64,000 nt of DNA from an uncultured Bdellovibrionales bacterium (lineage in GTDB: Bacteria; Patescibacteriota; Minisyncoccia; Moranbacterales; UBA1568), in assembly GCA_964580285.1 (NCBI GenBank), contig CAZOKB010000002.1, positions 34,770 through 98,769 of the forward strand. The letters run 5' to 3'. The notes under the pieces were generated by a model. The model did no database searches and was not told where the DNA came from. It saw nothing but the letters and a program-made list of their open reading frames with translations. Both the position numbers and the translations under genes were made by a program. Positions within the stretch are counted from its first letter, which is position 1. Every line of letters starts with the position of its first letter. Shown here in pieces: positions 1-49,420 of the stretch.

Positions 1-173
1 ATATGGTTAAATCAAAATCAGGGCGCATCTTTGCGCTTAAGAACCATGATGAGTGTTCGGTTGATATTACAAAAATCCTGAGTGATTTGGAAGATTTAGT
101 AAAAACAAGTGTAGAGCAAGATCGGCTTCGAGAAAGAATAAAGAAGGTATTTCCTTCGTTGAAAAAATAAGCA

Positions 174-1385: not shown

Positions 1386-1482
1386 ATCAATTAAGTCCGA
1401 ATAGAGATAGAGAAAATTGTATCAATGAAACAAAAAGAGTATAATAAAATGGCTTATTTATAGGAAAAAAATAATTTTTTTT

Positions 1483-3888: not shown

Positions 3889-3893
3889 AGAGT

Positions 3894-6654: not shown

Positions 6655-6661
6655 AAACGGG

Positions 6662-7066
6662 ATGATTAGATTGATTCTTGAAAAATTTCCATTAAAGCGC
6701 CTCATAAAATTCATTATCACAGGCGGCGTTGCATTGGCTATTGATATGGCTATCTATTTTATTTTGACCCGCTATGGAAATATCTATTATCTTTTTGGTC
6801 GGATAATTTCTTTAGGAATTGCAATTATTTGGAACTTCAGTATTAATCGTATCTGGACCTTTTCAGCTCTATCTGGAAAAGTGACGCAGCAAATGCCGCG
6901 TTTTCTGGTAGTTATTTTTTCAACGTCTCTTTTAAGTTTGATACTCATGCATATCGGAGTCTCTGTTTTTCACTTTAATGATCTCCTTGTATTGATTGTA
7001 GTTGCTGTTACCACAACACTGATTAATTTTTCTGCTCATTCATTTTGGAGCTATTCAAAATATTAA
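6662..7066 (+). CDS. GtrA-family small membrane protein
   Basis: IKFIITGGVALAIDMAIYFIL ... IAIIWNFSINRIWTF; typical GtrA topology and position directly after a GT2. Confidence 0.75.
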   Translation: MIRLILEKFPLKRLIKFIITGGVALAIDMAIYFILTRYGNIYYLFGRIISLGIAIIWNFSINRIWTFSALSGKVTQQMPRFLVVIFSTSLLSLILMHIGVSVFHFNDLLVLIVVAVTTTLINFSAHSFWSYSKY

Positions 7067-7067
7067 T

Positions 7068-8759: not shown

Positions 8760-8772
8760 AAAAGAAATCCAA

Positions 8773-9981
8773 TTATCTCCTTTCTATTGCTTCTCGGAAT
8801 ACACCCTCAATTTTTTCTGAGATAAGAGCTTGATGGAATTTTTTACTATACAGATCAAGAGAGTTTTTTGAATGATCTTCTAGTAGCGTTGAATCTTTAA
8901 GGTATTTTTCTACAGAAGAAATAATAAAATTTTCAATTATTTTGAGTTTTCCTGTATTTTGTAGTGAAAAAAGTTTTGTGTAAAAATCCTTTGGATTGTA
9001 ATAGCGGCCAAACATTTGGTATGTTTCTGGATTGTAGTCTCTAAGTGGATTAGGGTATGTAAATCCATTTAATCCTTCCCGTACCATTTCTTTTGTAGCA
9101 TATTGATCTGTGATAATGAGAGGCATACCATACGAGAGAGCCTCGACTAAAACAAGACCAAAGCCTTCCCGGTACGTTGGAAGGAGAAGGATGTCATGAG
9201 TTTGATACATTTCTGCCATTTCTTTTTCATTTAATTTTGCGTCTTGCAATGTAAGGCCTGGCAAGGAACATAAATAATCAATATCCTCTTTTCGTAGCAT
9301 GTGGAGGGCGGTAATAATTGTGAGACTGACATTTTGGTGGGTTTGTCTGAGTTTTTCATAAGCATGAGCTACTTCCATTCCTCCCTTCATGTAGAATGTT
9401 CCAGGAAAAAGAAGTTTTAGGGTTCCATCAAAACATTTGGGTGTCGATGTCCCTGCTTCTTCTGATGGAATGGGATAAATAACTATACTTTTTTTCATTA
9501 GAATTTTTTGTGTTCTTTCCCCGTAGTTTACAGAAGCAAAAAAGCTTTTTTTTGAAGCTTCGCTTACAAAAATAAGCTGTTTGCAATTAGATCGAGTTGC
9601 AAAAAAACCGATAATCCATCTGGCGATTGGATTTTTGGCAATTCCAAGATCGTAATTGTAGAGAGCAAGTCCTGTCTCTATATAAGTACAATATGGTTTT
9701 TTAGTAAGGAGAAGGCAGCCGTATGTAAATAAAAGATCACCTCTCTTTTTAAAATAAGGTCGTATATTAGGAATGCCAAGTATGCGTCGGAGTCTGTTTT
9801 TCCAGTGTGTTTTAAATCGTAAAATTTCCTTTTCAAATGTTGGAAGCTTGTGGTAGCTTCCTCCAGTCATGGGTGGATTTGCAATGTTAAAGAAAGTAAA
9901 ATATTTGAGTTGTTTTCCGAAGTTTAATACAAATTTTCTTAGATAAGGCTGAAAAAGGATTACTTCGTATTTTTTATCCAT
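8773..9981 (-). CDS. GT4 (GT1-fold) glycosyltransferase
   Basis: C-terminal REGFGLVLVEALSYGMPLIITD (E-x7-E retaining GT motif). Confidence 0.8.
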   Translation of the reverse strand: MDKKYEVILFQPYLRKFVLNFGKQLKYFTFFNIANPPMTGGSYHKLPTFEKEILRFKTHWKNRLRRILGIPNIRPYFKKRGDLLFTYGCLLLTKKPYCTYIETGLALYNYDLGIAKNPIARWIIGFFATRSNCKQLIFVSEASKKSFFASVNYGERTQKILMKKSIVIYPIPSEEAGTSTPKCFDGTLKLLFPGTFYMKGGMEVAHAYEKLRQTHQNVSLTIITALHMLRKEDIDYLCSLPGLTLQDAKLNEKEMAEMYQTHDILLLPTYREGFGLVLVEALSYGMPLIITDQYATKEMVREGLNGFTYPNPLRDYNPETYQMFGRYYNPKDFYTKLFSLQNTGKLKIIENFIISSVEKYLKDSTLLEDHSKNSLDLYSKKFHQALISEKIEGVFREAIERR

Positions 9982-9991
9982 AAGAATATTG

Positions 9992-10975
9992 TTAGGTGAG
10001 GATGTTTATATACTTTTGAGTCATGCTTTTTATATTAAATCGCTCCCTGGCTTTATTATTAGTTTGTATTTTTAGTCTACTAAGTCTTCCGGGGGGTATT
10101 TCTTGTATTATTTTTGAAAATTTTTCGTAACTTTCTTTGCTAAATGGATAGGAGTTTGTGAATGGATTGTGATTTATTACGTTAACATGATAACCGTTAT
10201 GCTCGTTTTCGATAATTTCGGAAATACTACCGCGATTAAAGGCAACAACAGGGAGTCCTGCTGCCATAGCTTCAAGAACGCTATTTGGGCAGGCGGATTG
10301 ATCAGAAAAGAGGAAAACGTCGTACTGATTGAGAATAGTCAAAAGAGCTTCATTGTCCTTTTTTCCCTTAAAGTGTATATGCGATGGCAGGTTTTGAAAG
10401 AGATAGGTTAAGTTTTCGGTATATGAGCCGTAGATATCCAAAGAGAAATGATTCGGATCGAGAAGCTTAACTGATTCTATGATTGGTTCAATCTGATCTC
10501 TTCTTCGAAACTTTGCAAAGGTGAGGAGTTTAAGAGGAGAATGCGGGGTAGGATTTTCTCTAGGCTGTATCTTTTCTATATCGACTCCATTATAGATAAT
10601 AGTGATCTCTTTTGCTTTTGTTTTTCCGAGGAATTTTTCGCAGGAAGTTTTGCTGAATTCGCTTTGATAAATGACGGTATCAGCAAAAAAATTATGAATA
10701 ATCTTCATTTTGAGATTATAGAACCAATACCGTTTTCCTGTAGGTGTAGCAGGATGATAGACGCCGTCTAATCGTTGGATTATTTTTTTTCTCTTAATTT
10801 TTGCGTAGAGAGGAAAGAATAGCGAGCAGTCAGTAATGATAAAAAGTACATCAAAATTTTTTTCAAAATTGAAGATAATAACAAATCCTCGTTTGATCAG
10901 TTGTTTGGAAAACTTCCCAACGAAGGTTGAAGTGCCGCCTATATCCTTTGTCGAAAAGGGGATGAATATTTTCAT
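9992..10975 (-). CDS. GT4 glycosyltransferase
   Basis: PNSVLEAMAAGLPVVAFNRGSISEII; start set at MKIFIP giving ATGA overlap with upstream GT2 gene. Confidence 0.8.
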   Translation of the reverse strand: MKIFIPFSTKDIGGTSTFVGKFSKQLIKRGFVIIFNFEKNFDVLFIITDCSLFFPLYAKIKRKKIIQRLDGVYHPATPTGKRYWFYNLKMKIIHNFFADTVIYQSEFSKTSCEKFLGKTKAKEITIIYNGVDIEKIQPRENPTPHSPLKLLTFAKFRRRDQIEPIIESVKLLDPNHFSLDIYGSYTENLTYLFQNLPSHIHFKGKKDNEALLTILNQYDVFLFSDQSACPNSVLEAMAAGLPVVAFNRGSISEIIENEHNGYHVNVINHNPFTNSYPFSKESYEKFSKIIQEIPPGRLSRLKIQTNNKARERFNIKSMTQKYINILT

Positions 10976-11766
10976 AGAGTTGCTTTCCGTTTCAGTTTTT
11001 TTAACCATTGCGGTGCAATGGCGACTAAGATTGGTTCGGCAAGCCATTTGTATTCACAGAGAGATCTTTTGTATCGCCTGAGGTATTTGATTCGAGTTTT
11101 AACGCATTGGAGCATCTGGTCTTTCTGATTTTTTCCATCAGAAGTAAGAGTGTTTTCGATATTTCGAAAACAGAGAAATTCGGGGATATTAGCAAAAGAA
11201 GATTGTGGGAGAAGGCGAAGCCAGAGATCGTAATCTTGTCCGTAGTAGACGGTTTCGTCATATCCTTCCACCTCTTTGATTTTGTTTGTTCGGAAGACAA
11301 CGCAGCTATGGGCAAATGGATTGTGTTTGAAAATATTTCTTTTGATTTCCTCGTTTGTTTCTGGGAGAGTAATTCTTTTTAATCCTTTTGAAGAGATATT
11401 TTCGTACCAGGTTCCGACGAGATCACAATCAGGGTGGTTTTCGAGAAAGTAGATTTGTTTTTCAAGTTTTTCTGGATGCCATTTGTCATCAGCATCGATT
11501 CTGGCGGTGTATGGCTCAGTAATAAATGATAATCCTTTGTTGAGAGATCGAGTAAGGCCGATATTGGTTTCATTTGCTAAAAGAAAAAATCTCTCTTCTC
11601 CGAATCGGTTTTGCCATTTCTTAAGAGAATTCAATGTGTCATCTTTTGAACAATCGTTTATAGCAATGATTCGAAAGTCTTGAAAAGTTTGTACTGAAAG
11701 ACTTTCGAATGTTTTATCGAGAGTTTTTTCTGCGTTATAGAGCGAGATAAGTACGGCGCATTTCAT
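10972..11766 (-). CDS. family-2 glycosyltransferase
   Basis: MKCAVLISLYNAEKTL...IIAINDCSKDDT...RIDADD. Confidence 0.85.
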   Translation of the reverse strand: MKCAVLISLYNAEKTLDKTFESLSVQTFQDFRIIAINDCSKDDTLNSLKKWQNRFGEERFFLLANETNIGLTRSLNKGLSFITEPYTARIDADDKWHPEKLEKQIYFLENHPDCDLVGTWYENISSKGLKRITLPETNEEIKRNIFKHNPFAHSCVVFRTNKIKEVEGYDETVYYGQDYDLWLRLLPQSSFANIPEFLCFRNIENTLTSDGKNQKDQMLQCVKTRIKYLRRYKRSLCEYKWLAEPILVAIAPQWLKKLKRKATL

Positions 11767-12866
11767 AGGGAATTGAGGAATTTTCTTAGTGACTCAGAAC
11801 TTGCTTTAAGAGAGAGATTTTTATGTATGAATTCTTTAGCTGCTGTCCCGATCTTTCTTGCTTCCTCTAGATTATCGAGAACTATGCGTATTGCTTGTGC
11901 GATATCGTTTGATGATTGAACTGGAACAAGAAAGCCAGTCTTTTTATTTTCAATGAGAACACGGTTTTCTGGGATATTCGTGGTAATAATAGGCAACGAG
12001 CATGTCATGGCTTCGAGAATAGCATTGCTCATTCCTTCAAAAAGAGTGGGAAGGACAAAAAGATGGGAAATTTTGAGAAGCTGAGGGACGTCGTTCCGGC
12101 GGCCGAGAAAAAGAATGTTTGCTTGGGAAGCGTAATTTTTAATCTGTTGTTTGAGGTTTTCTTGCTCGATTCCATCACCAACAAGGAGGAGTTTGAGTGG
12201 TCTTTGGTTGATGTGATGAAGTTCCTCGAAGGCTTCAAGAAGATATCGATGTCCTTTGTTTGGATGGAGGTTAGCGACACAGATAATGACGAAATCATCA
12301 GGGTTAATACTGAGAGATGTAATAAGGTTTTGATCTGGTTTTACTGAATCAAAAAAGTCAGTATCAATTCCTGTTGATACCACGGTAATTTTTTTCTGTG
12401 AGACCCCGAATTTTTCTACATAAGCATCCTTCACTGCTTGGGAATTTGCAAGATAGTGAAAAACAAAAGGTTTTGATATCTTTTCAAAGATTCGAGCAAA
12501 AAAATAACGAGAATAATTGTAGGTTGTCCCAAGGAAGGGAATGACCGGAGCGGAAGTAATCTTTTGAAGGGCAAAACGACCAATTGTGTCGGCATGAAAA
12601 AGGTAGGTAAGAATAATATCTGGTTTTTCTTCACGAACCAGTTTTCGAAGTCGAAAAACTCCACTAATATCAATTATTCCATTACAATGAACTGTTTCTA
12701 CGGGAATACCACTGGCAACAAACTTCGGAGTAAGTTCACCAAGTTCTTTTAAAGTGATAATTTTGTGTTCAAAATCAGAAAGTAGTGGAAGAGTACGTAG
12801 AAGGGCGTTTTCCCATCCTCCGTTACCAAGTGATTGGATGACATGAAGAATCTTTTTTTTCGGCAT
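11763..12866 (-). CDS. GT4 glycosyltransferase
   Basis: FEGMSNAILEAMTCSLPIITTNIPENRVLI...GFLV. Confidence 0.85.
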   Translation of the reverse strand: MPKKKILHVIQSLGNGGWENALLRTLPLLSDFEHKIITLKELGELTPKFVASGIPVETVHCNGIIDISGVFRLRKLVREEKPDIILTYLFHADTIGRFALQKITSAPVIPFLGTTYNYSRYFFARIFEKISKPFVFHYLANSQAVKDAYVEKFGVSQKKITVVSTGIDTDFFDSVKPDQNLITSLSINPDDFVIICVANLHPNKGHRYLLEAFEELHHINQRPLKLLLVGDGIEQENLKQQIKNYASQANILFLGRRNDVPQLLKISHLFVLPTLFEGMSNAILEAMTCSLPIITTNIPENRVLIENKKTGFLVPVQSSNDIAQAIRIVLDNLEEARKIGTAAKEFIHKNLSLKASSESLRKFLNSL

Positions 12867-12885
12867 AAGAAGAGATACCTTCTAG

Positions 12886-13974
12886 CTATCGTGTCCCTAC
12901 ACAGGTGATACCAGCCTCTGGATGCTCGAAGGATTGAACGTCCTTAAGTCTTCCGTCCCGAAACCATTGCTCGATTTCCTCAAAAAAGTAATAGTTGCTT
13001 TTTGGAGTCGCGAGGACATCAAAAGCGTCGTTGAGCTTCATGTTGAATGGAAAATGTGCATAGTAGGCAAACGGAAGTCTAGTTGCCAATTCCTTGAACC
13101 CGATTTTCTCGAGAAGTTTTCCGAAGAGATTGATAAGATGAACGCCAAACCCAGGAAGATAGCAGAACTTGAAGAGGATTGGTTTCGGGAGCTTCTTCAG
13201 AATGTCACGGAGCGGTTCGTAGAAATAAATAGCGCGCGCGTTGTTACGTCGGTTGTATACCCAGATCAAGAATTTCCCGCCCGAAGTAACAGTTTTTGGA
13301 AGCTTGAGGAAGCCTTGTTTTGGTCTTGGGAGATGATGAAGGACGCCGATAGAATAGGAGACATCAAAGGTGCCAAGGAATGGCATTTTATAAATATCAG
13401 CCTGGATAATACAGACATTCGGGAGATCCTTGGTCATGTCATAGGCTACCTCGACAGTTTCGCCGAGATCAGAACCAAAGGATACTTCGGTGCCAGAGAG
13501 CGCGGCCCACTTGGTGAAGCGTCCAGACCCGCAGCCGATATCGAGCGTCTTCTTTTCTTTGAGATTTTCTTCTTTCAAAAACGGTGAGAGAAAATGGAAG
13601 AAATTGTTTTTCTCGTAGTCGTTTTCTTTGTAGATGTACTTCCATTCATAAGCAAAGCTCTCGGCGGTTTTCTTTTGATGTCGCCAGAAAGCATCAAGAT
13701 CAGGAATAGCATCTATAGCTTTCTGCCATTCTTCGCTTATGTGAGGAGTAAGTTTTTCTTTGCAGGTATTAAAGAAATCTTGATGGACTTGGAGAAGGTT
13801 TTCTTTGAGTTCTTCTGTGAGAATTCTTGGGATCCCATTGATAATTGGATACCATGATTGCTCGGCAGTTAAAATGCCTGAAACAATATGTGGACCGTTT
13901 TCCTCGAAGATAGTGATTTCAAATGGCTTGTGCGAAATCGGATCAGAAAGATACTGGAGGTGCTCGTGTCTCAT
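12886..13974 (-). CDS. SAM-dependent methyltransferase with N-terminal Trm112-like domain
   Basis: LDIGCGSGRFTKWAAL (motif I); N-terminal ...YPIINGIPRIL Trm112-like segment. Confidence 0.8.
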   Translation of the reverse strand: MRHEHLQYLSDPISHKPFEITIFEENGPHIVSGILTAEQSWYPIINGIPRILTEELKENLLQVHQDFFNTCKEKLTPHISEEWQKAIDAIPDLDAFWRHQKKTAESFAYEWKYIYKENDYEKNNFFHFLSPFLKEENLKEKKTLDIGCGSGRFTKWAALSGTEVSFGSDLGETVEVAYDMTKDLPNVCIIQADIYKMPFLGTFDVSYSIGVLHHLPRPKQGFLKLPKTVTSGGKFLIWVYNRRNNARAIYFYEPLRDILKKLPKPILFKFCYLPGFGVHLINLFGKLLEKIGFKELATRLPFAYYAHFPFNMKLNDAFDVLATPKSNYYFFEEIEQWFRDGRLKDVQSFEHPEAGITCVGTR

Positions 13975-13995
13975 CGTTTCGGAATTATGAGTTAT

Positions 13996-14024
13996 AGAAA
14001 AAAGAGCTTTAATTTAGCTCTTTT
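13996..14024 (-). terminator. intrinsic terminator downstream of asnB-like gene
   Basis: AAAGAGCT-(7 nt loop)-AGCTCTTT hairpin followed on the minus strand by TTTTTTCT. Confidence 0.55.
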
Positions 14025-14061
14025 CCATTATATCACAGCTATTTATTTTGTGGCATGAAGT

Positions 14062-15948
14062 CTAAAAATACTCTTCAAACCAAAGTTCAAGAGTGAGAAG
14101 TGCCCAGATATGGGGAGAAAAATTGATGCTTGTGTTGCAGTGCTGATCAAGGATGTGCTCGATATATTCTTTGCGGAAGAGCTGGTCTTTGATGAGACGG
14201 CCGTTCAGGAGTTTTTCTCGTGTGTAGTCTTTGAGTTCATTACGAAACCAGTCATTGATGGGGACACCGAATCCCATCTTTGGCCGAAACATGACTTCAT
14301 CAGGTATGATGCCGCGAAGCGCTTCTTTGAGAATGTATTTCTTGTTGTTCAGTCCTTTGAGCTTCAGATGGAATGGAATCCCTGCTGAGAGTTCAAGCAT
14401 TTCGTGATCCAGAAAAGGGGATCTGCCTTCGAGTGCAACAGTCATCGTGGCGATATCAACTTTTACCAGGAGATCATCAGGAAGGTAGGTGGAAAAATCA
14501 GCGTAGACTGCTTGTTCTGCTCTCTGGGATGACCCGGATTGATTAAATTCGTGAGCGATCAGATCGTATGTGTCATTTCCCCAAACCTTCGCTTTGAATT
14601 CGTCAGTGTAAAGTTCTGCTTTTTGAGGATTGGTAAAATAGGAGGTGTAGTCCATATATCGCCTTCGGTAGTCTTCTCTGAGTGAGCGGCTGAACCGATG
14701 AATACGATCGAAAAGAGTGTTTTGGATAGTGTCGGCTGCGAGCCTGGCAAGAGGAGTTCCGAGATTTTTATGGAGAAATCCGAGTCGATCAAAAAGAAGC
14801 GAAATCTGGAAGGCTGCATAACGACTGTAGCCGGCAAAATTTTCATCTCCGCCGTCTCCGTTGAGAGCGACGGTGACGTGTTCGCGGGTGAGCTGAGAGA
14901 CGTAATAAGTAGGGAGTGCACTCGAATCAGCGTAGGGTTCCTCGTACTGTTTTGCGAGCATCGGAAGGAGTTCGATGGCATGCGGCTCAACAATGAATTC
15001 GGTGTGATCGGTCTTGAATCGATCAGCGATCATTTTTGCGTATGGGAGCTCATTGTACTTCTCTTCTTTAAAGCCAATGGAAAAGGTCTTAATGGGTTTA
15101 TCGGAATGCCGGGCCATCATAGCTACGATGGCACTGGAATCAACCCCGCCTGAAAGGAAGGCACCGATTGGCACATCGGAAATCATGCGGAGGCGAGTTG
15201 ATTCATCGAGCTTATCAATGATACGTTTTTTCCATTCATCTTCTGAGAGATCAAGCTTTTTTGAGTAATCAAGTTTCCAGTACCGCTTTTTTTCAAGAGT
15301 ACCGGTTTTAATATCGAGGGTGAGTGAGTGAGCAGGTTCAAGCTTTTTGATGTCCTTGAATCCGGTCATTGGGGCGGGGACATACTGAAGCGTCAGATAA
15401 TGATGAATCGCTTCGTAGTCAGGCTCTCTATGATATTCCGGTTGTGTCAGGATAGCTTTAAGTTCAGAGGCAAAGAGGAAAGTTTTCCCGTCAAAGAAGT
15501 ATTTGAGTGGCTTCTTGCCGACACGATCCCGAGCAGCGAAAAGTCGCCCTTTTTTTTCATCGTAGATGGCGAAAGCAAACATGCCGCGGAGATGATCGAG
15601 GCATTGCTCTCCGTATTTGTCGTAGAGTGCAAGGATAACTTCTGTATCTGAATGGGATGCAAACGTATAGCCTTCTTTTTCGAGAAGAGTACGCTTCTCT
15701 TGGAAGTTGTAAATTTCGCCATTGAAGACAATCTCATAGCGGTCAAGGTAGCGCATCGGCTGGTGGCCGAGCGGTGAGAGATCGATGATCGAGAGGCGAC
15801 GATGGCCGAGACCGACTTTTTGGTCGGGGGAAATATATACACCGCCATCGTCTGGACCGCGATGGAGGATAGCGTGATTCATTTGTTCGATCTCAGGAAG
15901 AAATACTTCTTTTGATGAAAGAGAAATTTTTCCAGCGATGCCGCACAT
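14062..15948 (-). CDS. asnB: asparagine synthetase B-type glutamine amidotransferase (glycan amidotransferase, WbpS-like context)
   Basis: N-terminal MCGIAG (Ntn Cys), SGGVDSS PP-loop, full-length ~630 aa; start set at MCGIAG. Confidence 0.9.
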   Translation of the reverse strand: MCGIAGKISLSSKEVFLPEIEQMNHAILHRGPDDGGVYISPDQKVGLGHRRLSIIDLSPLGHQPMRYLDRYEIVFNGEIYNFQEKRTLLEKEGYTFASHSDTEVILALYDKYGEQCLDHLRGMFAFAIYDEKKGRLFAARDRVGKKPLKYFFDGKTFLFASELKAILTQPEYHREPDYEAIHHYLTLQYVPAPMTGFKDIKKLEPAHSLTLDIKTGTLEKKRYWKLDYSKKLDLSEDEWKKRIIDKLDESTRLRMISDVPIGAFLSGGVDSSAIVAMMARHSDKPIKTFSIGFKEEKYNELPYAKMIADRFKTDHTEFIVEPHAIELLPMLAKQYEEPYADSSALPTYYVSQLTREHVTVALNGDGGDENFAGYSRYAAFQISLLFDRLGFLHKNLGTPLARLAADTIQNTLFDRIHRFSRSLREDYRRRYMDYTSYFTNPQKAELYTDEFKAKVWGNDTYDLIAHEFNQSGSSQRAEQAVYADFSTYLPDDLLVKVDIATMTVALEGRSPFLDHEMLELSAGIPFHLKLKGLNNKKYILKEALRGIIPDEVMFRPKMGFGVPINDWFRNELKDYTREKLLNGRLIKDQLFRKEYIEHILDQHCNTSINFSPHIWALLTLELWFEEYF

Positions 15949-15952
15949 AAGA

Positions 15953-17626
15953 TTATTTCTTTTTTTCCTGATAGACAACTATTTCACCAAACTGTCTATC
16001 TTTTGAAAAGTTAGCTAGATTTGGTAGTGATATATTCGTGCAATTTACTTCAGAAAAGGGTTGTTCTTTAGAGAAGATAGAAAATTTAGAAAGGATTCTA
16101 AAGAATTTTTCAAATAAATTTCTGTAAGAATAAGAATCGCAATTTTTGGTTGCACTTACGTAGAACTTTGCCCGAGAAAGATCACCACCTCTCTCAGGTG
16201 CTTTTGTTTGGTAATTTAGAAACAGCTGAGTATTGATAAAGGTTGCTTCTGGAGAATAAACGATTTTTTCCTCCGGGGAAGTGTTATAGGTCAGGTATTC
16301 GAGTAATTCATCTGAAATAGCAATATTTTGTGCCTGATTAAGATATGCATTCCAGAGATACGCATATACGGATGAAAGTGTGATGGATACAAGCAGAACA
16401 ACAAGAGTTAGTCCTTTTAGAGCTATAGAATAGATCCTTAATGGAATGTTTTTTGAAATTACTTTAAGCCAAAACCACGCAGCCTGCCCATACAATAGAA
16501 ATGTTACAGGCCAAAGATAAATAAGCGCCCTTTCCCCATTTATATTCAGGGAAGATATAGCGACAAAAAGTATGCCAGCAATATAAAGGCTAAGAAGTTT
16601 AAACTGTTTAAAATAGAAAAGGATCACTAAACAGAAAAAAAGCAACGGATACCCAAGCCAGTTGAGGAATATTAATTTAAAATAATTCTCTTCTATTTTT
16701 TTCCAACCCAAAAACATTATATTTTTCTTTTCTTGAGTGCTGGATAGGAAGTTGGATGATTCTGTTGTATTTTTTTTGTTTAGAATTGTTTCAGAGGTGT
16801 TAGTTGTTTCAGTTGTAGATTTATTTTCAACTATACTCTTGGTGATAAATTCGGGACTATATGGATTTCCATAGGAAGTATGGGAATAATATATAGCAAC
16901 AGGAGCGTAAACAATAATGCTAATAGTACAGAAAAAAATTATCTTTTTGAGTAACTGACGATCAATGTTTTTTGTCAGAAGCGAAAATAGAACAAAGAAG
17001 AGGAAAAGAATACACAAAAAATAAAGACTAAGAACGTGATTGAATATATAGAACGGAGAAATTACTCCAAGAATAATCAGCCATTGTTTTAATGTATGGT
17101 CAAAAAGAATTCCGAGAATAAAGAAAAAGAACGCAAGAGAGAAGAAGCTCGGAACGACCCAAAAAAATCCATGATAAGCCCCTGATCCGTTGTAGAGCGC
17201 TAGAATAAACAGAGAAAAGGCTATGAAGTTTTTATTGTTATTACAAAGTCTTTTCAAAAAAAATAACAATGATCCGAGAAGAAGAATGGTCCCAATGTAG
17301 AAGCCTAGATGATAAGTTTCAATTGCATTTAACTCAAGAAGTTTTCCGATTGTCCCAAAGAAAAGTCGATAGGTAAGATGATCAAATCCTGTATATGTAT
17401 CAAAATTTACCGGATTATCTTTGCAAAAAATAAAACTCTTACACTGCAAGACAGAGTCAATATGTTGTATGTACACATATGAATCATCGGGACTTGGTGG
17501 TATATGCCTATTGTTCCAAAGTGTCCCTATAAGAAAGAATTTCCAGATAATAAAAAATATGGATACAACAATGATCCACTTATTTTGTTTCGTCCAGTCA
17601 ATTATCTGTTTTTGATTAAATTGCAT
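15953..17626 (-). CDS. polytopic membrane protein with Thr/Asn-rich low-complexity loop, function unknown
   Basis: ~14 hydrophobic segments; internal STTETTNTSETILNKKNTTESSNF segment; start set at MQFNQ to avoid 66-nt overlap. Confidence 0.55.
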   Translation of the reverse strand: MQFNQKQIIDWTKQNKWIIVVSIFFIIWKFFLIGTLWNNRHIPPSPDDSYVYIQHIDSVLQCKSFIFCKDNPVNFDTYTGFDHLTYRLFFGTIGKLLELNAIETYHLGFYIGTILLLGSLLFFLKRLCNNNKNFIAFSLFILALYNGSGAYHGFFWVVPSFFSLAFFFFILGILFDHTLKQWLIILGVISPFYIFNHVLSLYFLCILFLFFVLFSLLTKNIDRQLLKKIIFFCTISIIVYAPVAIYYSHTSYGNPYSPEFITKSIVENKSTTETTNTSETILNKKNTTESSNFLSSTQEKKNIMFLGWKKIEENYFKLIFLNWLGYPLLFFCLVILFYFKQFKLLSLYIAGILFVAISSLNINGERALIYLWPVTFLLYGQAAWFWLKVISKNIPLRIYSIALKGLTLVVLLVSITLSSVYAYLWNAYLNQAQNIAISDELLEYLTYNTSPEEKIVYSPEATFINTQLFLNYQTKAPERGGDLSRAKFYVSATKNCDSYSYRNLFEKFFRILSKFSIFSKEQPFSEVNCTNISLPNLANFSKDRQFGEIVVYQEKKK

Positions 17627-17634
17627 GAATTTGG

Positions 17635-18798
17635 TTAATAAACAGAACCTTTTAAGATTTTTTTGAATACTTCTAAATATCTTTCGATAGAGTGTGGCCA
17701 CGAAAATTTATCATTTACTTTTTGATAGGCATTTTCTCCTAAGGACTGCCGAAATGTTGGATTATTGAGTAGTTTCTCTAATTTTTCAGCAAGAGACTGT
17801 ATATCATGTGGCTGGATGAGAAATCCATCTTTATGGCCAGAAATGACTTCTCGGGTACCGCCAACATTGGTAGCGATTATGGCTTTTTTGCAGAGAGCAG
17901 CTTCAATGACAGTAGTAGGAATTCCTTCTGAATAACTTGGATTAACAAAAATATCGGATACCTTCAAGAGTGCTATGGCTTCATCAAAACGACGGTGCCC
18001 AAAAAAAGTAACACTTTCTTCAAGATCTTTTTCTGAAACAAGATTTTCTAATCGCTTTAATTCTGGTCCATCCCCAATGATGAAGCAGTGAAAAAGTTCG
18101 TGATTCAAAGTGCTAATAGCTGCTATTAGATCCTTTACTCCTTTTCCATCAATGAGTCTACCGATGTAGCTAATGATGACTTTATTTTTATGATCTCTTT
18201 TAAAATTAGCGGCTTCTTGGATACGAAAAATATTTTCACTTTCAATTCCACGGTATATTACATGACAGTCAGTTCGTCCTGAGAGTGTATGAACAAACTC
18301 GGCTGATGCGTGTGAATTTGCTATGACAAGATCAGCGCGACAAATTACAAAACGTCCAAAGATTTGGTCATAAAGAATGCCGAGTTTTGTTTTGCAGTAT
18401 CCGTTGAATTGAGCATAACTTGATCCATGTTCGATATGAACAAGAGGAAATTTTCTTTTTTTGGCATAGTACCAGGCCATGAGAGAAGTAAAGAAAAATC
18501 GAGTACGACAAATAACAAGACTATAGTCATCTTTAAATAAAAGCTTCCATTGTTTCCAAAACGCACGTGACCAAAATTTTGGAAGAGGGTAGTTGTGTAT
18601 TAATTCGAAAGCAGGGAATCGCACTATTCTTACATTATTATGGCGTATTTCAGTTTCTGGGGCTTCTTGAGGAAGTCTCGGAGTAAATACAAAAATTTCT
18701 ACACCCTTCTTTGAAAGGTATTTATTAAACTCATCGCTATGCGTTTCCAGTCCGCCAATATGCGGAGGATAGTATGGTGAAAATATGAGGAGCTTCAT
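17635..18798 (-). CDS. GT4 glycosyltransferase
   Basis: SEGIPTTVIEAALCKKAIIATNVGGTREVI...GFLI. Confidence 0.85.
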   Translation of the reverse strand: MKLLIFSPYYPPHIGGLETHSDEFNKYLSKKGVEIFVFTPRLPQEAPETEIRHNNVRIVRFPAFELIHNYPLPKFWSRAFWKQWKLLFKDDYSLVICRTRFFFTSLMAWYYAKKRKFPLVHIEHGSSYAQFNGYCKTKLGILYDQIFGRFVICRADLVIANSHASAEFVHTLSGRTDCHVIYRGIESENIFRIQEAANFKRDHKNKVIISYIGRLIDGKGVKDLIAAISTLNHELFHCFIIGDGPELKRLENLVSEKDLEESVTFFGHRRFDEAIALLKVSDIFVNPSYSEGIPTTVIEAALCKKAIIATNVGGTREVISGHKDGFLIQPHDIQSLAEKLEKLLNNPTFRQSLGENAYQKVNDKFSWPHSIERYLEVFKKILKGSVY

Positions 18799-18799
18799 T

Positions 18800-19171
18800 T
18801 TATTCTTCTTGTTCCTCTGATGTGCCTTTGAGCGCTTCTTGTCGTGTGAGGGTAGTAAACTGTTGCTCGAGGCGTTCGATGGCGGAGAGGAGTTTGAAAA
18901 TCATAAGGAAGACAAGAATGAAGCCAACGAGGATGACGGCGTTGATATTGCCCGAGATGCCAATCCAGAGGGCGACATCGTTGCTCAGGTTTGGCCAGAT
19001 GGCGATGGCTGCCATGCCACCCCAAACAATGATACGCACGGCGAGCTTGATAAAAGTCTGTCCGCTCTCATGTTTGATAAAATTTTTAACACCCTGGCCG
19101 ATCATGAAGAGGGCGAGGATGGCGATGACTATCTGGTAAAGCGCGAAGGACATAATAGGGTCAATTAACAA
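18800..19171 (-). CDS. small membrane protein (DUF2304-like partner of GT2 genes)
   Basis: 123 aa, three hydrophobic helices, charged C-terminal tail, located immediately downstream of a GT2 gene as in GT2-DUF2304 pairs. Confidence 0.5.
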   Translation of the reverse strand: MLIDPIMSFALYQIVIAILALFMIGQGVKNFIKHESGQTFIKLAVRIIVWGGMAAIAIWPNLSNDVALWIGISGNINAVILVGFILVFLMIFKLLSAIERLEQQFTTLTRQEALKGTSEEQEE

Positions 19172-19205
19172 TTAACAAAAAACAGATAACAATTTAACTG
19201 ACAAT
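19162..19205. repeat. AATTAACA(A/G)TTAACAA motif copy with local inverted repeat (GTCAATTAAC ... GTTAAATTGAC-like)
   Basis: sequence GTCAATTAACAATTAACAAAAAACAGATAACAATTTAACTGAC in the 22-bp gap between two minus-strand genes; related to the IRs at 21843 and 22308. Confidence 0.4.
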
Positions 19206-20902: not shown

Positions 20903-21841
20903 ATGAATGAACAGCCGTATCTGTCGGTAGTTGTTCCGCTCTTTAATGAAGAGGGGAATGTGAGAGAATTGCATAAGCGTATCCGCGAGGCGCTTCAGAA
21001 AATCGGGAAGCCATTTGAGATTATCTTTGTTGATGATGGTTCTAGGGACAAAACCCGTGAAGAATGCGTTGGTCTTTCCCCACTCAAACTGATTGTCTTT
21101 CGTAAGAATTTTGGTCAGACCGCAGCGTTTGATGCTGGTATCAAAGCAGCGCTTGGTGAGATTATCATCACCTTAGATGGTGATTTGCAGAATGACCCGG
21201 AAGATATTCCGCTTCTCTTGGAGAAGATACAGCAGGGGTTTGATGTGGTTTCGGGCTGGCGGTTTAAGCGTAAGGACCCGTTCATGAAGCGCTTCTTTTC
21301 GCGAGGAGCCAACTTTCTCCGTTCGATTCTCGTCAAAGATGGTATTCATGATTCGGGTTGCAGTCTCAAGGCGTATAAGCGAGAGTGTTTTAAAGAAATT
21401 GATCTTTTTGGTGAAATGCACCGGTTTATGCCAGCTCTCCTGGCGCTCGATGGGTTTCGGGTTTCCGAAGTCAAGGTTTCTCATCATCCTCGTGTGCATG
21501 GCGTAACCAAGTACAATTGGCGGCGGGCGGTCAAAGGCTTTGTTGATATGATCGCTATTTGGTTCTGGCGCAAATATTCACATCGGCCCATTCATCTCTT
21601 TGGCGGTGGCGGTATCGTACTATCGGTGATTGGAAGCGGAATTCTGTTATGGATGCTGATTGAAAAGCTCGTATTCAAAGCTTCTTTGGCTGAGCGCCTC
21701 TGGCCGCTTATTGGTATCTTCTTTGTGCTTATTGGTGTGCAGCTGTTTATTTATGGACTGTTGGCAGATATCATCGTGCGCAACTACTACCATATGCGCA
21801 GCCGCATGAATTACTCGATTCGAGAAGTAATAAACCAATAA
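20903..21841 (+). CDS. family-2 glycosyltransferase with C-terminal TM helices (ArnC/GtrB-like polyprenyl-phosphate sugar transferase)
   Basis: LSVVVPLFNEEGNV...IIFVDDGSRDKT...DGDLQNDP plus two C-terminal hydrophobic helices. Confidence 0.85.
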   Translation: MNEQPYLSVVVPLFNEEGNVRELHKRIREALQKIGKPFEIIFVDDGSRDKTREECVGLSPLKLIVFRKNFGQTAAFDAGIKAALGEIIITLDGDLQNDPEDIPLLLEKIQQGFDVVSGWRFKRKDPFMKRFFSRGANFLRSILVKDGIHDSGCSLKAYKRECFKEIDLFGEMHRFMPALLALDGFRVSEVKVSHHPRVHGVTKYNWRRAVKGFVDMIAIWFWRKYSHRPIHLFGGGGIVLSVIGSGILLWMLIEKLVFKASLAERLWPLIGIFFVLIGVQLFIYGLLADIIVRNYYHMRSRMNYSIREVINQ

Positions 21842-21842
21842 C

Positions 21843-22322
21843 CAATTAACAGTTAACAACTAACAGAAAACAAAGCCAGTAAACAGCGATGAAAATAACA
21901 GTCAACGGAGAACAGAAAACGAAAAGCAATGGAAACGGATATTCTGAAAGAAAAGATGGATTTTTTGGCAAGGGGAGTATACACAGCGACGAAGTTTTTT
22001 CCAAAAAGATGAAATATACGGACTTACCTCGCAGATCAGAAGGGCATCGTTGTCAGTAATCCTGAATTATATCGAAGGTTTTGCACGAGGAAGAAACAAG
22101 GAGTTGAAAAATTTTCTGCATATCTCCCATGGATCTCTTAAGGAGACGAAATATCTTCTTTTCTTCTGCGCTCGAGAGGAATATATCCAAAAAGATCAGT
22201 ATGAGAAATTAATGGTGTTGACGGATGAAATAGGTGCGATGTCATGGAAACGGATTGAAAAAATGAAGACGAAGATAGTAGATGATAATATAGTTGGTGT
22301 CGGTATCGTTAACTGTTAATTG
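21843..22322. mobile_element. 480-bp IR-bounded cassette carrying a four-helix-bundle gene (possible miniature insertion / IVS-like element)
   Basis: perfect 15-bp inverted repeat CAATTAACAGTTAAC (21843-21857) / GTTAACTGTTAATTG (22308-22322); arms extend as imperfect (AATAAAC)n / (GTTTATT)3 repeats. Confidence 0.35.
21957..22319 (+). CDS. four-helix-bundle protein (TIGR02436-like; family first described inside 23S rRNA intervening sequences)
   Basis: ...QKDEIYGLTSQIRRASLSVILNYIEGFARGRNKE...HISHGSLKETKYLL matches the YxLTxQxRRAxxSIxxNIAEG core; start set at in-frame ATG 21957 (ORF track lists only the TTG-initiated 22050 portion); N-terminal region shorter than canonical. Confidence 0.6.
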   Translation, partial: WIFWQGEYTQRRSFFQKDEIYGLTSQIRRASLSVILNYIEGFARGRNKELKNFLHISHGSLKETKYLLFFCAREEYIQKDQYEKLMVLTDEIGAMSWKRIEKMKTKIVDDNIVGVGIVNC

Positions 22323-22346
22323 TTTATTGTTTATTGTTTATTGACT

Positions 22347-23654
22347 ATGAAATTAGCATTTATCGGAGTGGGGTATGTGGGACTGGTAACGGGAGCATGC
22401 ATGGCGGAACTCGGGCATACGGTTATTTGCGCGGATGTTGATAAGAAGAAAATTGCCAAGCTCAAGCGAGGAGTGATGCCTATTTACGAATTAGGTCTTG
22501 AAGAGTTGGTAGAAAAAAATGTCAAAGAAGGGCGGCTCTCTTTTACTGCTTCTGTGGCAACAGCTATGAAGGCCTCAGAAGTAGTATTCAGCGGGGTCGG
22601 GACTCCGGAAGACAAGAAAACGGGTAAGGCAGATATGCAGTATGTGCATGCGGTCGCCCGTGAGTTTGGCAAGAACTTGAATGGCTACAAGATTTTGGTT
22701 AACAAATCGACGGTTCCGGTGGGAACGGCGGATATCGTGCGCGATATCGTAGCGCACGCGAGCAAAGGGAAATATGAATTCGATATCGTCTCGAATCCGG
22801 AATTCCTCCGTGAAGGAGCGGCGATCAAGGACTTTTTAAATCCTGATCGCGTGGTAGTGGGAGTGGCTTCGGACCGGGCTAAGGCGATCATGGAAAAAAT
22901 TTATCGTCCTATTGCTCGTACTGGCCGACCAGTGATGATGACGGATATCCGTTCGGCTGAACTGATTAAATACGCGAGCAATGCTTTCCTGGCGACGAAG
23001 ATCACTTTTGCCAATGAGCTGGCGAATTTCTGCGAGCTCTCGGGAGCGAATATCAAGGAAGTCTCAAAGGGCATGGGGCTTGACAGTCGCATCGGATCAC
23101 GTTTCCTCTATGCAGGTATTGGCTATGGCGGCTCGTGCTTTCCGAAAGATGTCCAGGCGCTCATGGAGACGGGGAAAGAATACCAGTTCGATTTCTCGAT
23201 CATCCGTGCGGCTGACCGGGTGAATGACCAACAGAAGATGCGTCCATACGCAATCGCCAAGAAACATTTTAAAAATCTCAAGGGGAAAACGTTTACACTC
23301 TGGGGACTTTCGTTCAAGCCACGCACAGATGATGTGCGCGAAGCCCCGGCGCTCTATGTGGCTGAGGCCCTGCTCAAGGCGGGTGCCAAGGTGCGGGTGT
23401 TTGATCCGGTGGCGATGGAGAATTTCTCGCTGGCATTCGCCGACAAGCGTCTCAAGTACACCGAGAGCGCGTATGAGGCCGTCGAAGGCGCTGATGCACT
23501 GCTTGTCATGACCGAGTGGGATGAGTTCCGTACGACAGAATATCCAGAGCTTGCTGCGCGTATGAAAGAACGTGTCATTATTGATGGTCGCAATATCTTT
23601 GATCGTTCTGAGGCTGAAAAAGAAGGGTTTGTGTATTACGGTATTGGAGTGTAG
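22347..23654 (+). CDS. ugd: UDP-glucose 6-dehydrogenase
   Basis: MKLAFIGVGYVGLVTGACMAELGH N-terminal Rossmann signature, catalytic GGSCFPKD, full length 435 aa. Confidence 0.9.
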   Translation: MKLAFIGVGYVGLVTGACMAELGHTVICADVDKKKIAKLKRGVMPIYELGLEELVEKNVKEGRLSFTASVATAMKASEVVFSGVGTPEDKKTGKADMQYVHAVAREFGKNLNGYKILVNKSTVPVGTADIVRDIVAHASKGKYEFDIVSNPEFLREGAAIKDFLNPDRVVVGVASDRAKAIMEKIYRPIARTGRPVMMTDIRSAELIKYASNAFLATKITFANELANFCELSGANIKEVSKGMGLDSRIGSRFLYAGIGYGGSCFPKDVQALMETGKEYQFDFSIIRAADRVNDQQKMRPYAIAKKHFKNLKGKTFTLWGLSFKPRTDDVREAPALYVAEALLKAGAKVRVFDPVAMENFSLAFADKRLKYTESAYEAVEGADALLVMTEWDEFRTTEYPELAARMKERVIIDGRNIFDRSEAEKEGFVYYGIGV

Positions 23655-38074: not shown

Positions 38075-38161
38075 TGCGAATCAAAAAACCGCTTCGGTCA
38101 ATATGACGGAGCGGTCTTTTCTTTTTCCCTATTCAATATTCCATATTCGATATTCTTTCTC

Positions 38162-39664: not shown

Positions 39665-39674
39665 ATATTTTTTT

Positions 39675-49375: not shown

Positions 49376-49420
49376 CTCCCGTGTGAATCTCTCATGATTC
49401 GCCCGGGAGTTTTTCTTTTT
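49376..49420 (+). terminator. intrinsic terminator at 3' end of GC-rich segment
   Basis: CTCCCG-(21 nt)-CGGGAG followed by TTTTTCTTTTT. Confidence 0.5.

Follow-up and report, generated by a model that had tools for sequence, protein, structure and literature searches.

What is a four-helix-bundle (FHB) gene of the PF05635/TIGR02436 family doing inside an inverted repeat (IR), between the genes for a family-2 glycosyltransferase (GT2) and UDP-glucose 6-dehydrogenase (ugd) of a Moranbacteria-like CPR genome? In the preliminary description of the 64-kb stretch of DNA analysed here (the window), it was read as a small mobile or IVS-like cassette or, as a fallback, as an ordinary gene with a palindromic operator. 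Intervening sequences (IVSs) in 23S rRNA have been known for more than 30 years; how they arose, how mobile they are and what the S23p/FHB ORF does are still open questions, and PF05635 continues to be listed as functionally uncharacterised (PMC4990558, PMC11270868). The features of the locus are as follows:

19162–19194, + strand: solo array, CAATTAA x4.7, in the DUF2304/GT2 spacer of a divergent operon (repeat and motif searches)
20903–21841, + strand: GT2, family-2 glycosyltransferase, the upstream host gene (PF00535, E=6.7e-33)
21829–21857, + strand: left IR arm, perfect core 21843–21857 (repeat search, alignment)
21843–21928, + strand: leader of about 12 heptamer units (CAATTAA CAGTTAA CAACTAA CAGAAAA ...) up to the FHB start codon (lag-7 autocorrelation; TRF rows at 21829 and 21843)
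21929–22006, + strand: N-terminal segment of FHB (METDILKEKMDFLARGVYTATKFFPK), helix 1 (translation, tblastn, alignment to intact homologues)
22003–22007, + strand: A5 run with the frame-breaking 1-nt insertion; 0-frame stop TGA at 22010–22012 (sequence, translation)
22008–22319, + strand: C-terminal segment of FHB (DEIYGLTSQIRRAS...VNC, stop) (profile matches of the repaired protein, given below)
22308–22336, + strand: right IR arm, perfect core 22308–22322 (repeat search, alignment)
22314–22343, + strand: right heptamer array, TGTTTAT x4.3, two units fewer in assembly L003 (tandem-repeat rows)
22347–23654, + strand: ugd, UDP-glucose 6-dehydrogenase, the downstream host gene (PF03721, PF00984, PF03720)

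The IR around the FHB gene is perfect over 15 nt, CAATTAACAGTTAAC at 21843–21857 having its exact reverse complement at 22308–22322, with 450 nt between the arms. The imperfect extension of the arms that had been noticed before is also real: in the repeat search the match lengthens to 25 nt with 92% identity (21833–21857 and 22308–22332), and gapped local alignment yields 29-nt arms with one gap and one mismatch (21829–21857 versus 22308–22336; score: 45). The 99th percentile of this score lies at 33 in the control set (flanks of 334 genes) and at 25 in 1675 random window pairs. The left IR begins 2 nt past the GT2 stop codon (21839–21841), as originally described, and 24 nt separate the end of the right IR from the ugd ATG (22347). 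Both arms are the inner portions of two inverted arrays of degenerate heptamers. The 87-nt leader is such an array throughout (about 12 units, CA[AG]NTAA), with lag-7 autocorrelation of 0.54, compared to 0.83 in the trailer; the last three codons and the stop of GT2 (ATA AAC CAA TAA) already lie within the left array, and the final codons and the stop of FHB lie inside the right arm. When 21825–22346 is folded, the terminal stem closes in the MFE structure as well as in the centroid, and the energy of the arm duplex is -28.5 kcal/mol. The fold of the entire cassette is not more stable than those of shuffled sequences (z=0.33), as expected for a 390-nt coding loop, and thus adds no support, only the terminal stem being informative. 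The promoter scan of the + strand revealed no promoter-like or terminator-like site at either arm, the Rfam scan of the window identified neither rRNA nor any other family, and the PADLOC search gave no match.

The search for additional copies of the 15-mer, carried out in the 64-kb window with up to 3 mismatches, returned 12 occurrences against 1.98 expected, a number reached by no shuffle, and all of them are confined to three arrays (19162–19190, 21836–21906 and 22308–22343). Outside the cassette there is one solo array of 4.7 CAATTAA units at 19162, and nowhere else in the window is the repeat found. The preliminary description had assigned to that site a related motif with a local IR of its own; the motif holds, with one mismatch to the 15-mer, but the local hairpin does not (-4.0 kcal/mol, z=-0.74). 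The solo array is restricted to the window's lineage and has no partner arm; it could be a footprint, which has not been demonstrated. As a separate observation, period-7 arrays are frequent in the window and some of them are located within genes.

The N-terminal helix of the FHB protein had been thought to be shortened, a suggestion that has to be abandoned, for the reading frame is broken by a 1-nt insertion (an extra A at 22007, in the run 22003–22007) and helix 1 is encoded in another frame at 21929–22006. The repaired protein (129 aa) covers positions 5–103 of the 106 positions of PF05635 (98.7 bits; cut-off: 33.8), matches TIGR02436 (96.8 bits; cut-off: 24), shares 90% identity with P0001, an intact homologue, and weakly matches Avd-type profiles (PF22296, NF033474, phrog_3206). 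It exhibits the conserved R-x3-S-x3-N-x2-E motif (R38-A-S-L-S42-V-I-L-N46-Y-I-E49), while the leading G of GxxRxxxSxxxNxxE, the motif reported for the FHB family (PMC3936711), is replaced by Q. The dN/dS ratio is 0.08 between the window and L009 and 0.007 between L010 and L097 (with dS saturated), indicating strong purifying selection on FHB. The family forms pentamers, as in the PDB entries 2GSC and 2RLD with five chains each. No second FHB copy was found in the window. The frameshift is identical in the assemblies L001, L002 and L003, and the four assemblies differ from one another solely in the right array, which has two units fewer in L003. The organism occurs in the metagenomes JGI 3300045396, JGI 3300045379 and SRR12404957. 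A programmed +1 frameshift at CCA-AAA-AGA-TGA was also considered; the slippery run A-AAA-A followed by AGA and TGA is suggestive, yet this possibility is disfavoured. The run is absent from intact homologues (L009 has CCGAAAGATGAA at this site), FHB is broken or truncated at other positions in L124, L145, L146 and L149, and two positions that are conserved elsewhere are changed in the window protein alone (ISHGSL in place of ISYGSL, AMSWKR in place of AMLWKR). These differences favour a recent pseudogene, and judging from the sequences alone we consider that the window ORF is probably one.

According to the preliminary description, the idea of a cassette would be refuted if the GT2/ugd junction had no empty counterparts and if its orthologues carried the same gene without IRs. 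Clean empty GT2/ugd junctions were identified in at least 14 related contigs (13 in the metagenome set and 1 in the closest relative, L172), and the similarity between the window and the empty site of L172 stops 9 nt before the GT2 stop. The FHB orthologues at the same junction are likewise bracketed by inverted heptamer arrays. Neither of the two conditions for refutation is fulfilled, hence the mobile or IVS-like reading is supported. The spacer of L018, listed as empty, was tried as a mini-cassette and rejected, its fold being non-significant (z=0.87). In neighbor-joining trees without support values, the FHBs of the GT2/ugd junction group in a single clade and their branching broadly follows that of GT2; on this evidence the window copy seems to have been resident for long, passed on by vertical descent, and not to have been inserted recently.

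Evidence of movement comes from a second cassette type, FHB2, found in the same operon at three junctions in different relatives: GT2/ugd, ugd/GT4 and GT4/LPG. The FHB2 copies are 87–100% identical at the amino acid level, and their homology sets in and ceases where the arrays have their outer ends. At ugd/GT4 the empty site is a 3-nt spacer, and comparison of filled and empty sites at ugd/GT4 and GT2/ugd revealed that the spacer is replaced, without a target-site duplication. The consensus fold of FHB2 contains a 33-pair terminal stem in 5/5 sequences, with several G.U pairs. Thus, FHB2 demonstrates gain, loss and movement between junctions of a discrete DNA unit, while for the window copy only presence or absence at the junction has been documented.

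The same cassette design recurs around the FHB family in several phyla. In 66 distinct FHB genes, mostly from CPR, the median IR score of the flanks is 34.5, compared to the mean of 17.5 for the 334 control genes, and 55 of the 66 exceed the 95th percentile of the controls (Mann-Whitney p=1.7e-26). The complementarity is specific for the locus: matched arms give a median of 35 and cross-locus pairings 17, and the repeat units vary among loci and agree within each locus. The best autocorrelation lag is 7 in 40/64 upstream and 42/64 downstream flanks, compared to 30/272 random segments. Cassettes are co-oriented with both neighbours in 46 of 55 cases, compared to 60% of control genes (p=1.3e-4). 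Flanking arrays of this design accompany 2 of 4 cyanobacterial plasmid FHB genes examined, and within 50 kb of pANA02 the arm unit is confined to the cassette. The cassette of Nostoc punctiforme pNPUN02 (record positions 15234–15599) lies between TCAGGAG arrays. The association is not universal, as about 10–15% of FHB genes, e.g. L103 and L116, have no detectable IR. Duplex folding of 160-nt flanks failed to discriminate them from random pairs, as long inputs yield large energies regardless, and was replaced by the alignment-based IR scores. Among the arm mismatches G.U is not clearly commoner than A.C (58 versus 47), so the mismatches do not demonstrate that selection acts at the level of the sense RNA in preference to DNA.

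How close is this design to the classical rRNA elements? In the IVS of the Coxiella burnetii 23S rRNA (helix 45), RNase III cuts a terminal stem of 28 bp, the number of GACAGAT heptamers upstream of the ORF varies, and the ORF is decaying (PMC4990558); another ORF-bearing IVS is that of the Leptospira 23S rRNA (Ralph & McClelland 1993, cited in PMC4990558). Common to the window cassette and the rRNA IVSs are the size (430–520 nt), a terminal stem of about 28–30 bp around a PF05635 (S23p) ORF, tandem heptamers that follow the left arm, precede the start codon and vary in number among strains, a poor Shine-Dalgarno sequence, decay of the ORF while the RNA part stays, and sporadic presence among relatives. 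The copy number varies in the upstream array in Coxiella and in the right-hand array in the window cassette (L003). The window cassette differs in that it resides in the spacer of a polycistronic mRNA, between the GT2 stop and the ugd start, and not in a 23S rRNA helix, and in that both of its arms are themselves heptamer arrays. The Rfam scan of 13 FHB loci placed none of them in rRNA, hence the direct sequence link to rRNA IVSs has not been made. Taken with the empty sites, the orthologue arrays and the sister cassette at three junctions, this Coxiella-like anatomy supports the small mobile or IVS-like cassette of the preliminary description, and the element appears to be a relative of the rRNA intervening sequences that is so far undescribed and moves occasionally.

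The explanation we favour, with somewhat more confidence than doubt, is that of an IVS-type cassette with arms that base-pair once transcribed and so provide a probable cleavage site for RNase III; in the absence of any transcript data the processing is inferred by analogy alone, and the mode of movement is inferred as well. The segment 21829–22343 is one copy of a three-part design (a degenerate 7-nt array, the FHB gene and the array inverted), co-oriented in the GT2/ugd stop/start spacer. It would be read as part of the operon transcript; this co-transcription is presumed from the absence of a promoter-like site in the cassette. In the transcript the arms are predicted to form a stem of about 30 bp that would loop out the FHB frame, a pairing inferred for the cell, and the geometry of ORF-bearing rRNA IVSs, whose stems are cut by RNase III, suggests that this stem may be an RNase III or double-stranded RNA processing site. 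Putative cleavage would yield separate messages for GT2, FHB and ugd, or at the least bring together the two host cistrons. The cassette may have entered the GT2/ugd junction in the ancestor of a Moranbacteria group, with subsequent vertical descent and clean loss in several lineages, and in the population represented by the window the ORF would have been inactivated recently by the 1-nt insertion, with the arms still near-perfect. No genes for RNase III, reverse transcriptase, transposase or integrase are present in the 64-kb window, and how the DNA moves is a matter of inference, as is the role of the FHB protein.

Or perhaps the protein itself drives the spread of its cassette? A pentameric, nucleic-acid-binding FHB could recognise the hairpin of the heptamer arrays, be it RNA or DNA, and help the cassette to be copied, inserted or maintained, with rRNA IVSs as a special case. 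Such systems have precedents: in REPtrons (REPIN-RAYT) a small gene in extragenic space is flanked by inverted short repeats able to form a hairpin, and RAYT proteins promote copying, insertion or maintenance of the flanking REP sequences, while Avd assists a reverse transcriptase. The cassette resembles REPtrons in being a small extragenic gene between inverted hairpin-capable repeats, and an autonomous element would agree with the association of FHB and arms across phyla, the arm unit particular to each cassette, the purifying selection, the movement of cassettes and the pentameric family that includes Avd (phrog_3206, NF033474). However, FHB is not an HUH/Y1 transposase, and we know of no catalytic motif in its family; 46 loci showed no excess of arm-like sequences outside the cassettes (p=0.40), and in the DNA covered, which included no complete CPR genome, the further copies seen amount to the one related solo array in 64 kb (19162) and to none in 50 kb of pANA02. 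With the Avd of diversity-generating retroelements (DGRs) the protein has the homologous four-helix-bundle fold in common, but it scores, when repaired, below the curated cut-offs (33.1 versus 40; NF033474: 32.9 versus 80) and neither a reverse transcriptase nor a template/variable repeat pair is present near the cassette. In addition, the window FHB is frameshifted although its arms are near-perfect. We regard this alternative as rather unlikely, the best placed of the rivals though it is.

Less plausible still is a DNA transposon of the non-autonomous kind, either a MITE-like one or one of the IS200/IS605-PATE type, with the inverted arrays serving as terminal repeats for a transposase encoded elsewhere and FHB as cargo. 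A discrete unit with inverted ends at different junctions is what it would predict, and the lack of target-site duplications is compatible with HUH/Y1 single-stranded DNA transposition, even if it departs from MITEs and IS elements, as do the absence of fixed terminal repeats and of a transposase. The arms are tandem arrays that vary in length and unit and offer no fixed termini, the cargo is invariably FHB, the orientation follows the host operon with a strong bias, the placement is exactly stop-to-start, and there is no transposase in the 38 window proteins scanned or in the precomputed Pfam calls of the inspected loci. Nor is it an integron gene cassette, the arms being symmetrical at both ends, the cassette standing alone and no integrase being present in the window.

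It is very improbable that FHB is an ordinary resident gene whose arrays are mere by-products of a genome-wide heptamer tendency in spacers, their complementarity being incidental or due to template-switch repair and without function. The commonness of period-7 arrays in the window, even in genes, the drift of array copy number among assemblies and the missing bias to sense-RNA wobble pairs could be read in this way, but complementary flanks are missing from the control genes of these loci, the two flanks compared directly, without inversion, are no more alike than background (median 18), and the arms travel with the gene. Moreover, orthologous cassettes with TAACAGT-type units (the window's group) and CATGAAA-type units (the L106 group) keep their arms complementary despite the change of unit. 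The fallback of a palindromic operator, or a terminator pair, regulating an ordinary gene has practically nothing left to recommend it beyond the arms adjoining the flanking genes, given the 450 nt between the arms, the absence of promoter- or terminator-like sites at them on the + strand and the conservation of the architecture with unrelated arm sequences elsewhere.

Returning to the IVS-type cassette, parts of the pattern have been encountered before. Heptanucleotide tandem repeats (STRR) of cyanobacteria were reportedly recognised by Mazel et al. in 1990. Intergenic TAACTGA direct repeats are known from Beggiatoaceae and cyanobacteria (PMC4679880). Like the arrays of the window these are short period-7 spacer arrays, often immediately upstream of start codons and of unknown function, but they were described as direct repeats without a link to FHB or inverted pairing, whereas in the window two inverted arrays bracket FHB. 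Stand-alone FHB/23S_rRNA_IVP genes inside operons, e.g. between cas genes, were reported by Zhang et al. (2013, PMC3936711), who interpreted the co-occurrence as functional association with nucleases; the cas6/FHB/cas4 arrangement was found by us in Anabaena sp. 90 and Pseudanabaena. These are likewise single small genes of the same family amid co-oriented unrelated genes, but flanking inverted heptamer arrays, empty sites and movement from junction to junction are not described there, and a limited literature search found no paper linking FHB genes to inverted heptamer arrays outside rRNA. A bolder generalization, which we put forward only tentatively and would not bet on, is that FHB genes with inverted arrays are a widespread unrecognised class of elements at operon stop/start junctions of Patescibacteria, Cyanobacteria and other phyla, that the classical ORF-bearing rRNA IVSs are the same element in an rRNA helix, and that FHB is the element's own factor, which recognises the heptamer hairpin and is needed for spread or upkeep.

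If operon junctions host the same design as rRNA, the question of IVSs becomes open to comparative genomics via datable gains, losses and jumps, and arms that change their sequence while keeping complementarity provide an additional comparative handle. If true, FHB genes regarded as "associated" with cas and polysaccharide operons may be passengers and not components of these pathways, and the long-unexplained heptamer (STRR-type) arrays are offered a possible partner. The prediction would be that RNase III processing sites exist within operons of CPR bacteria, organisms not yet culturable alone.

The element between the genes for a family-2 glycosyltransferase (GT2) and UDP-glucose 6-dehydrogenase (ugd) is very probably a cassette of the intervening sequence (IVS) type carrying a four-helix-bundle (FHB) gene, inserted long ago and with its ORF now disrupted. 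Its anatomy, as observed, is the following:

19162-19190: short heptamer array
20903-21841 (+): GT2 gene
21829-22343: FHB cassette
21843-21857 and 22308-22322: 15-mer CAATTAACAGTTAAC and its exact reverse complement
21929: ATG of the frame encoding FHB helix 1
22003-22007: A run with one extra A
22010-22012: in-frame TGA
22050-22319: ORF noted initially (89 aa)
22347-23654 (+): ugd gene

The perfect 15-bp inverted repeat of the preliminary description is indeed present; the arm pair extends to 25 nt (92%) without gaps, and gapped local alignment lengthens it to 29 nt (one gap, one mismatch; score 45). The arms are the inner portions of two degenerate-heptamer arrays. The 87 nt from the GT2 stop to the FHB start read CAATTAA CAGTTAA CAACTAA CAGAAAA etc. 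(lag-7 autocorrelation 0.54). GT2 takes its stop codon and the three codons preceding it from the left array. The trailer array (TGTTTAT x4.3, lag-7 autocorrelation 0.83) is separated from the ugd ATG by 3 nt. Allowing up to 3 mismatches, CAATTAACAGTTAAC has 12 matches in the 64-kb window (~2 expected; 12 reached in 0 of 100 shuffles), all of them in the arms and their extensions or in the short array at 19162-19190. The related motif noted near 19162 is real, and no further copy lies elsewhere in the 64-kb window.

The ORF noted initially covers only the C-terminal three quarters of the PF05635/TIGR02436 protein, whose N-terminal helix had been considered shortened. In fact helix 1 is encoded upstream in a different frame, the two frames being split by the single extra A. 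Removal of one A yields a 129-aa protein, which matches positions 5-103 of 106 of the Pfam model (98.7 bits; TIGR02436: 96.8 bits) and aligns without gaps across the junction between ...FFPK and DEIYGLTSQ... with intact homologues (69-90% identity). The frameshift is not an assembly error, because three contigs from other samples (two from JGI, one from Logan) have exactly the same sequence, the sole difference being the absence of two right-hand array units from the Logan contig. Comparison with the intact homologue from locus L009 gave dN/dS of 0.08 at dS of 0.59, and therefore the gene was under purifying selection during most of the divergence of the two. Two substitutions peculiar to the window lineage, at positions otherwise conserved, suggest that selection has recently relaxed. 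The window gene is regarded as a recent pseudogene, with low-level +1 slippage on A-AAA-A not excluded.

The Coxiella burnetii IVS (428-444 nt, helix 45 of 23S rRNA) contains an ORF of the FHB family (S23p), decaying and apparently untranslated, and 2-3 GACAGAT heptamers, in strain-variable number, from the left arm to the start codon (PMC4990558). All these anatomical points are reproduced in the window cassette; only the host molecule differs. Related ORFs (23S_rRNA_IVP) of no known function have been reported within 16S and 23S insertions of CPR bacteria (PMC11270868), the location of FHB genes between cas genes has been interpreted as a functional association (PMC3936711), and intergenic heptamer arrays have been described in cyanobacteria and Beggiatoaceae without a link to FHB genes (PMC4679880). 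The literature search revealed no account of FHB genes as operon-junction cassettes whose arms are inverted heptamer arrays, which is not proof of novelty.

The design was found to recur at other FHB genes. A scan of the GTDB representative genomes with the FHB alignment identified 54 loci, mostly from Patescibacteria (one labelled Nitrospinae, one Limisphaerales, and several contigs with doubtful automated labels). Flanks were scored by locally aligning the 150 nt upstream with a reverse-complemented 160-nt segment around and following the stop codon.

Flank scores of FHB genes and controls
FHB genes (66 distinct): median 34.5
Random window pairs of the same geometry (n=1675): mean 16.4, 99th percentile 25
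Flanks of other genes in the same loci (n=334): mean 17.5, 95th percentile 23, 99th percentile 33

The control 95th percentile was exceeded by 55 of 66 FHB genes (Mann-Whitney p=1.7e-26). The complementarity is locus-specific, with a median of 17 for arms paired across loci vs 35 for matched arms, and of 18 for the two flanks compared non-inverted. Lag 7 was the best period in 40/64 upstream and 42/64 downstream flanks vs 30/272 random segments, the remaining flanks mostly preferring lag 8. Read on the coding strand, A makes up 50% of the left arm and T makes up 50% of the right. An orientation bias was also observed, 46 of 55 cassettes being co-oriented with both neighbours vs 60% of control genes (p=1.3e-4).

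The analysis also covered four FHB genes on cyanobacterial plasmids. On pANA02 of Anabaena sp. 90 (L157, record 44157-45003) FHB lies between cas6 and cas4 of a type I-D CRISPR-Cas operon, with ~300 nt of GGTGACA/GGGAACA units upstream and an inverted CTGTCAC x5 array downstream; on 50 kb of this plasmid the GGTGACA unit occurs at the cassette only. The downstream array falls within the annotated cas4 start, which may be misannotated. The Pseudanabaena galeata plasmid (L159) likewise carries FHB between cas6 and cas4 of a type I-D operon, with a heptamer hairpin upstream, and the gene of Nostoc punctiforme pNPUN02 lies between a TCAGGAG array and a CTCCTGA array (35 nt at 83%). The fourth gene, adjoining IS elements, has no flanking arrays. 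Thus, the design is not restricted to uncultured bacteria.

The gene order GT2-FHB-ugd-GT4-LPG_synthase with intact FHB is conserved at L005, L009, L010/L011, L097-L101, L103, L106, L107 and L110, and in nearly all these orthologous loci FHB is again bracketed by inverted heptamer arrays. The window's group has units of the TAACAGT/AACAAAT type, the L106/L107/L110 group has CATGAAA-type units, and the left and right arms match within each locus despite this change. The FHB proteins of the GT2/ugd junction form one clade, whose branching is broadly congruent with the GT2 tree (both are neighbour-joining trees lacking support values), so the cassette has long resided at this junction and has been inherited vertically. 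Empty sites were also found. A metagenome scan with the GT2 alignment revealed 13 loci with GT2 64-77% identical and ugd directly next, separated by plain spacers (7-215 nt, mostly <35 nt) without FHB or arrays, and the closest relative found, L172 (GT2 82%, ugd 81%), is likewise empty at GT2/ugd (spacer 56 nt). Filled and empty junctions interleave on the GT2 tree. Since FHB forms only one clade here, this pattern is explained most simply by a single early gain and several later clean losses.

A very divergent second type, FHB2, with CCAAAAT-type arms and proteins 87-100% identical, occupies three different junctions in relatives: GT4/LPG_synthase (L010, L011), ugd/GT4 (L099, L172) and GT2/ugd (L160, L162, L168, L170), the last being the junction where the window has its FHB1-type cassette. 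The boundaries are visible in the six-way DNA alignment, where homology runs from CAA[GT]AACCAAAATCC to TTGGTGATT independently of the junction, and the flanks are alignable solely between loci of the same junction. The empty ugd/GT4 site of the nearest relatives reads ...GGAGTG TAG CGC ATG AA... and the filled site ...GGAGTC TGA [TAGACAATAGACCAAGAACC...GGTGATT] ATG AAAG...; therefore a ~470-nt unit stands in place of a 3-nt spacer, both flanking genes being undamaged. At GT2/ugd its first six bases, CAATAA, are the last Gln codon and stop of GT2. In the window, GT4/LPG_synthase (2-nt gap) and ugd/GT4 contain no cassette. Judging by these sequences, a cassette must have translocated at least once, and GT2/ugd must have been occupied independently at least twice. 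Together with the empty sites and the Coxiella-like anatomy, the presence of FHB2 at three junctions supports the earlier suggestion of a small mobile or IVS-like cassette. In L099 (9480-9550) GT4/LPG_synthase is empty, yet a solo CAAAACT/GAAAACT-type array stands at the GT4 3' end, perhaps a footprint left by the type of FHB2 cassette that occupies this junction in L010. The solo array at 19162 in the window might be a comparable case.

As to what moves the DNA unit, the FHB protein itself is an attractive candidate, since the homologous Avd is a nucleic-acid-binding cofactor of a reverse transcriptase, but such a role is unsupported. A classical cut-and-paste transposon is argued against by the array ends and by the absence of target duplication at the FHB2-filled ugd/GT4 site relative to the empty one. 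No transposase, integrase, reverse transcriptase or RNase III was found among the window proteins scanned, and a test for arm-like sequences dispersed around cassettes was negative.

The window is one long glycan/cell-surface region (many glycosyltransferase, Wzy-type, PMT_2, flippase and LytR genes), with named homologues in Candidatus Moranbacteria and other Patescibacteria. Within the glycan gene region, G+C steps near 19 kb from ~33-45% (1-19000) to ~45-54% (19000-64000), which may reflect a laterally acquired glycosyltransferase gene block; GC skew is positive throughout, whatever the gene strand. Period 7 dominates the TRF output of the window (12 of 36 rows, none with period 6 or 8), in spacers and genes alike (7526, 19162, 21829, 22314, 35866, 35895, 38125, 49706, 49762, 49811, 50026, 51054). 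Compact inverted heptamer arrays without FHB also occur within coding regions, listed here with other features:

35855-35935: inverted-array hairpin (GATTTTG... / ...CAAAATC), in-frame, 60 nt, within a Wzy_C (O-antigen ligase-like) gene; MFE -25 kcal/mol, z=-5.3
38125-38155: TTCCATA x4.4 array directly past the stop codon of the RtcB RNA ligase gene (38162-39754, -)
48614-48642: strong promoter-like site, TTGACA-17-TATACT with TG
48631-49675: ~1 kb without a convincing ORF
48880-49420 (+): GC-rich 540-nt core, folding far better than shuffles (z=-5.43), terminating in a hairpin and U-run (~49375-49415)
49750-49850: hairpin of inverted GAATATC-type arrays within the GT4 gene 49676-50911, z=-3.6
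50042-50062: 21-nt perfect-stem palindrome CCTGCCTTGCCGGCAGGCAGG
51054-51083: TTTTTGG array within a Wzy_C gene (50896-52482)

The unit at 35855-35935 is similar to the FHB2 arms of relatives. The arrays at 49750-49850 encode a variable loop, present in the orthologues P0122 and P0123 and not in P0124 and P0125, and their unit recurs at 38125-38155. These hairpins resemble ORF-less short rRNA IVSs; a relation to FHB cassettes is not established. The palindrome encodes a 7-residue insertion, PALPAGR, of the GT4 protein, found in none of 14 aligned orthologues. Calls of the Wzy_C gene 3' of GT4 differ in length (509, 524 or 528 residues) among loci L150-L155, whose samples carry an identical GT4 protein. 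RtcB ligates 3'-P/2',3'-cyclic-P to 5'-OH ends and RNase III leaves other ends, so no link between RtcB and the cassette is implied. The 48631-49675 region contains neither a tRNA nor a tmRNA and matches no Rfam family even at E<=0.1; it is a candidate for an unknown structured RNA.

The window cassette itself lacks a promoter-like site; presumably it would be transcribed along with the operon and its arms would pair in the RNA. The terminal stem appears in both MFE and centroid folds (arm duplex -28.5 kcal/mol), and FHB2 cassettes have a common 33-pair terminal stem with several G.U pairs, which covers the start codon. By analogy with rRNA IVSs, such a stem may be a substrate of RNase III. 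Processing by this enzyme as the mode of action is inferred and remains tentative, somewhat short of an even chance, and the wobble-pair test on the arms did not separate RNA-level from DNA-level constraint. What the sequence comparisons do show is the anatomy of the cassette, its recurrence, arm complementarity within each locus, the orientation bias, the boundaries, the empty sites and, for FHB2, movement between junctions, and the finding generalises beyond the window.
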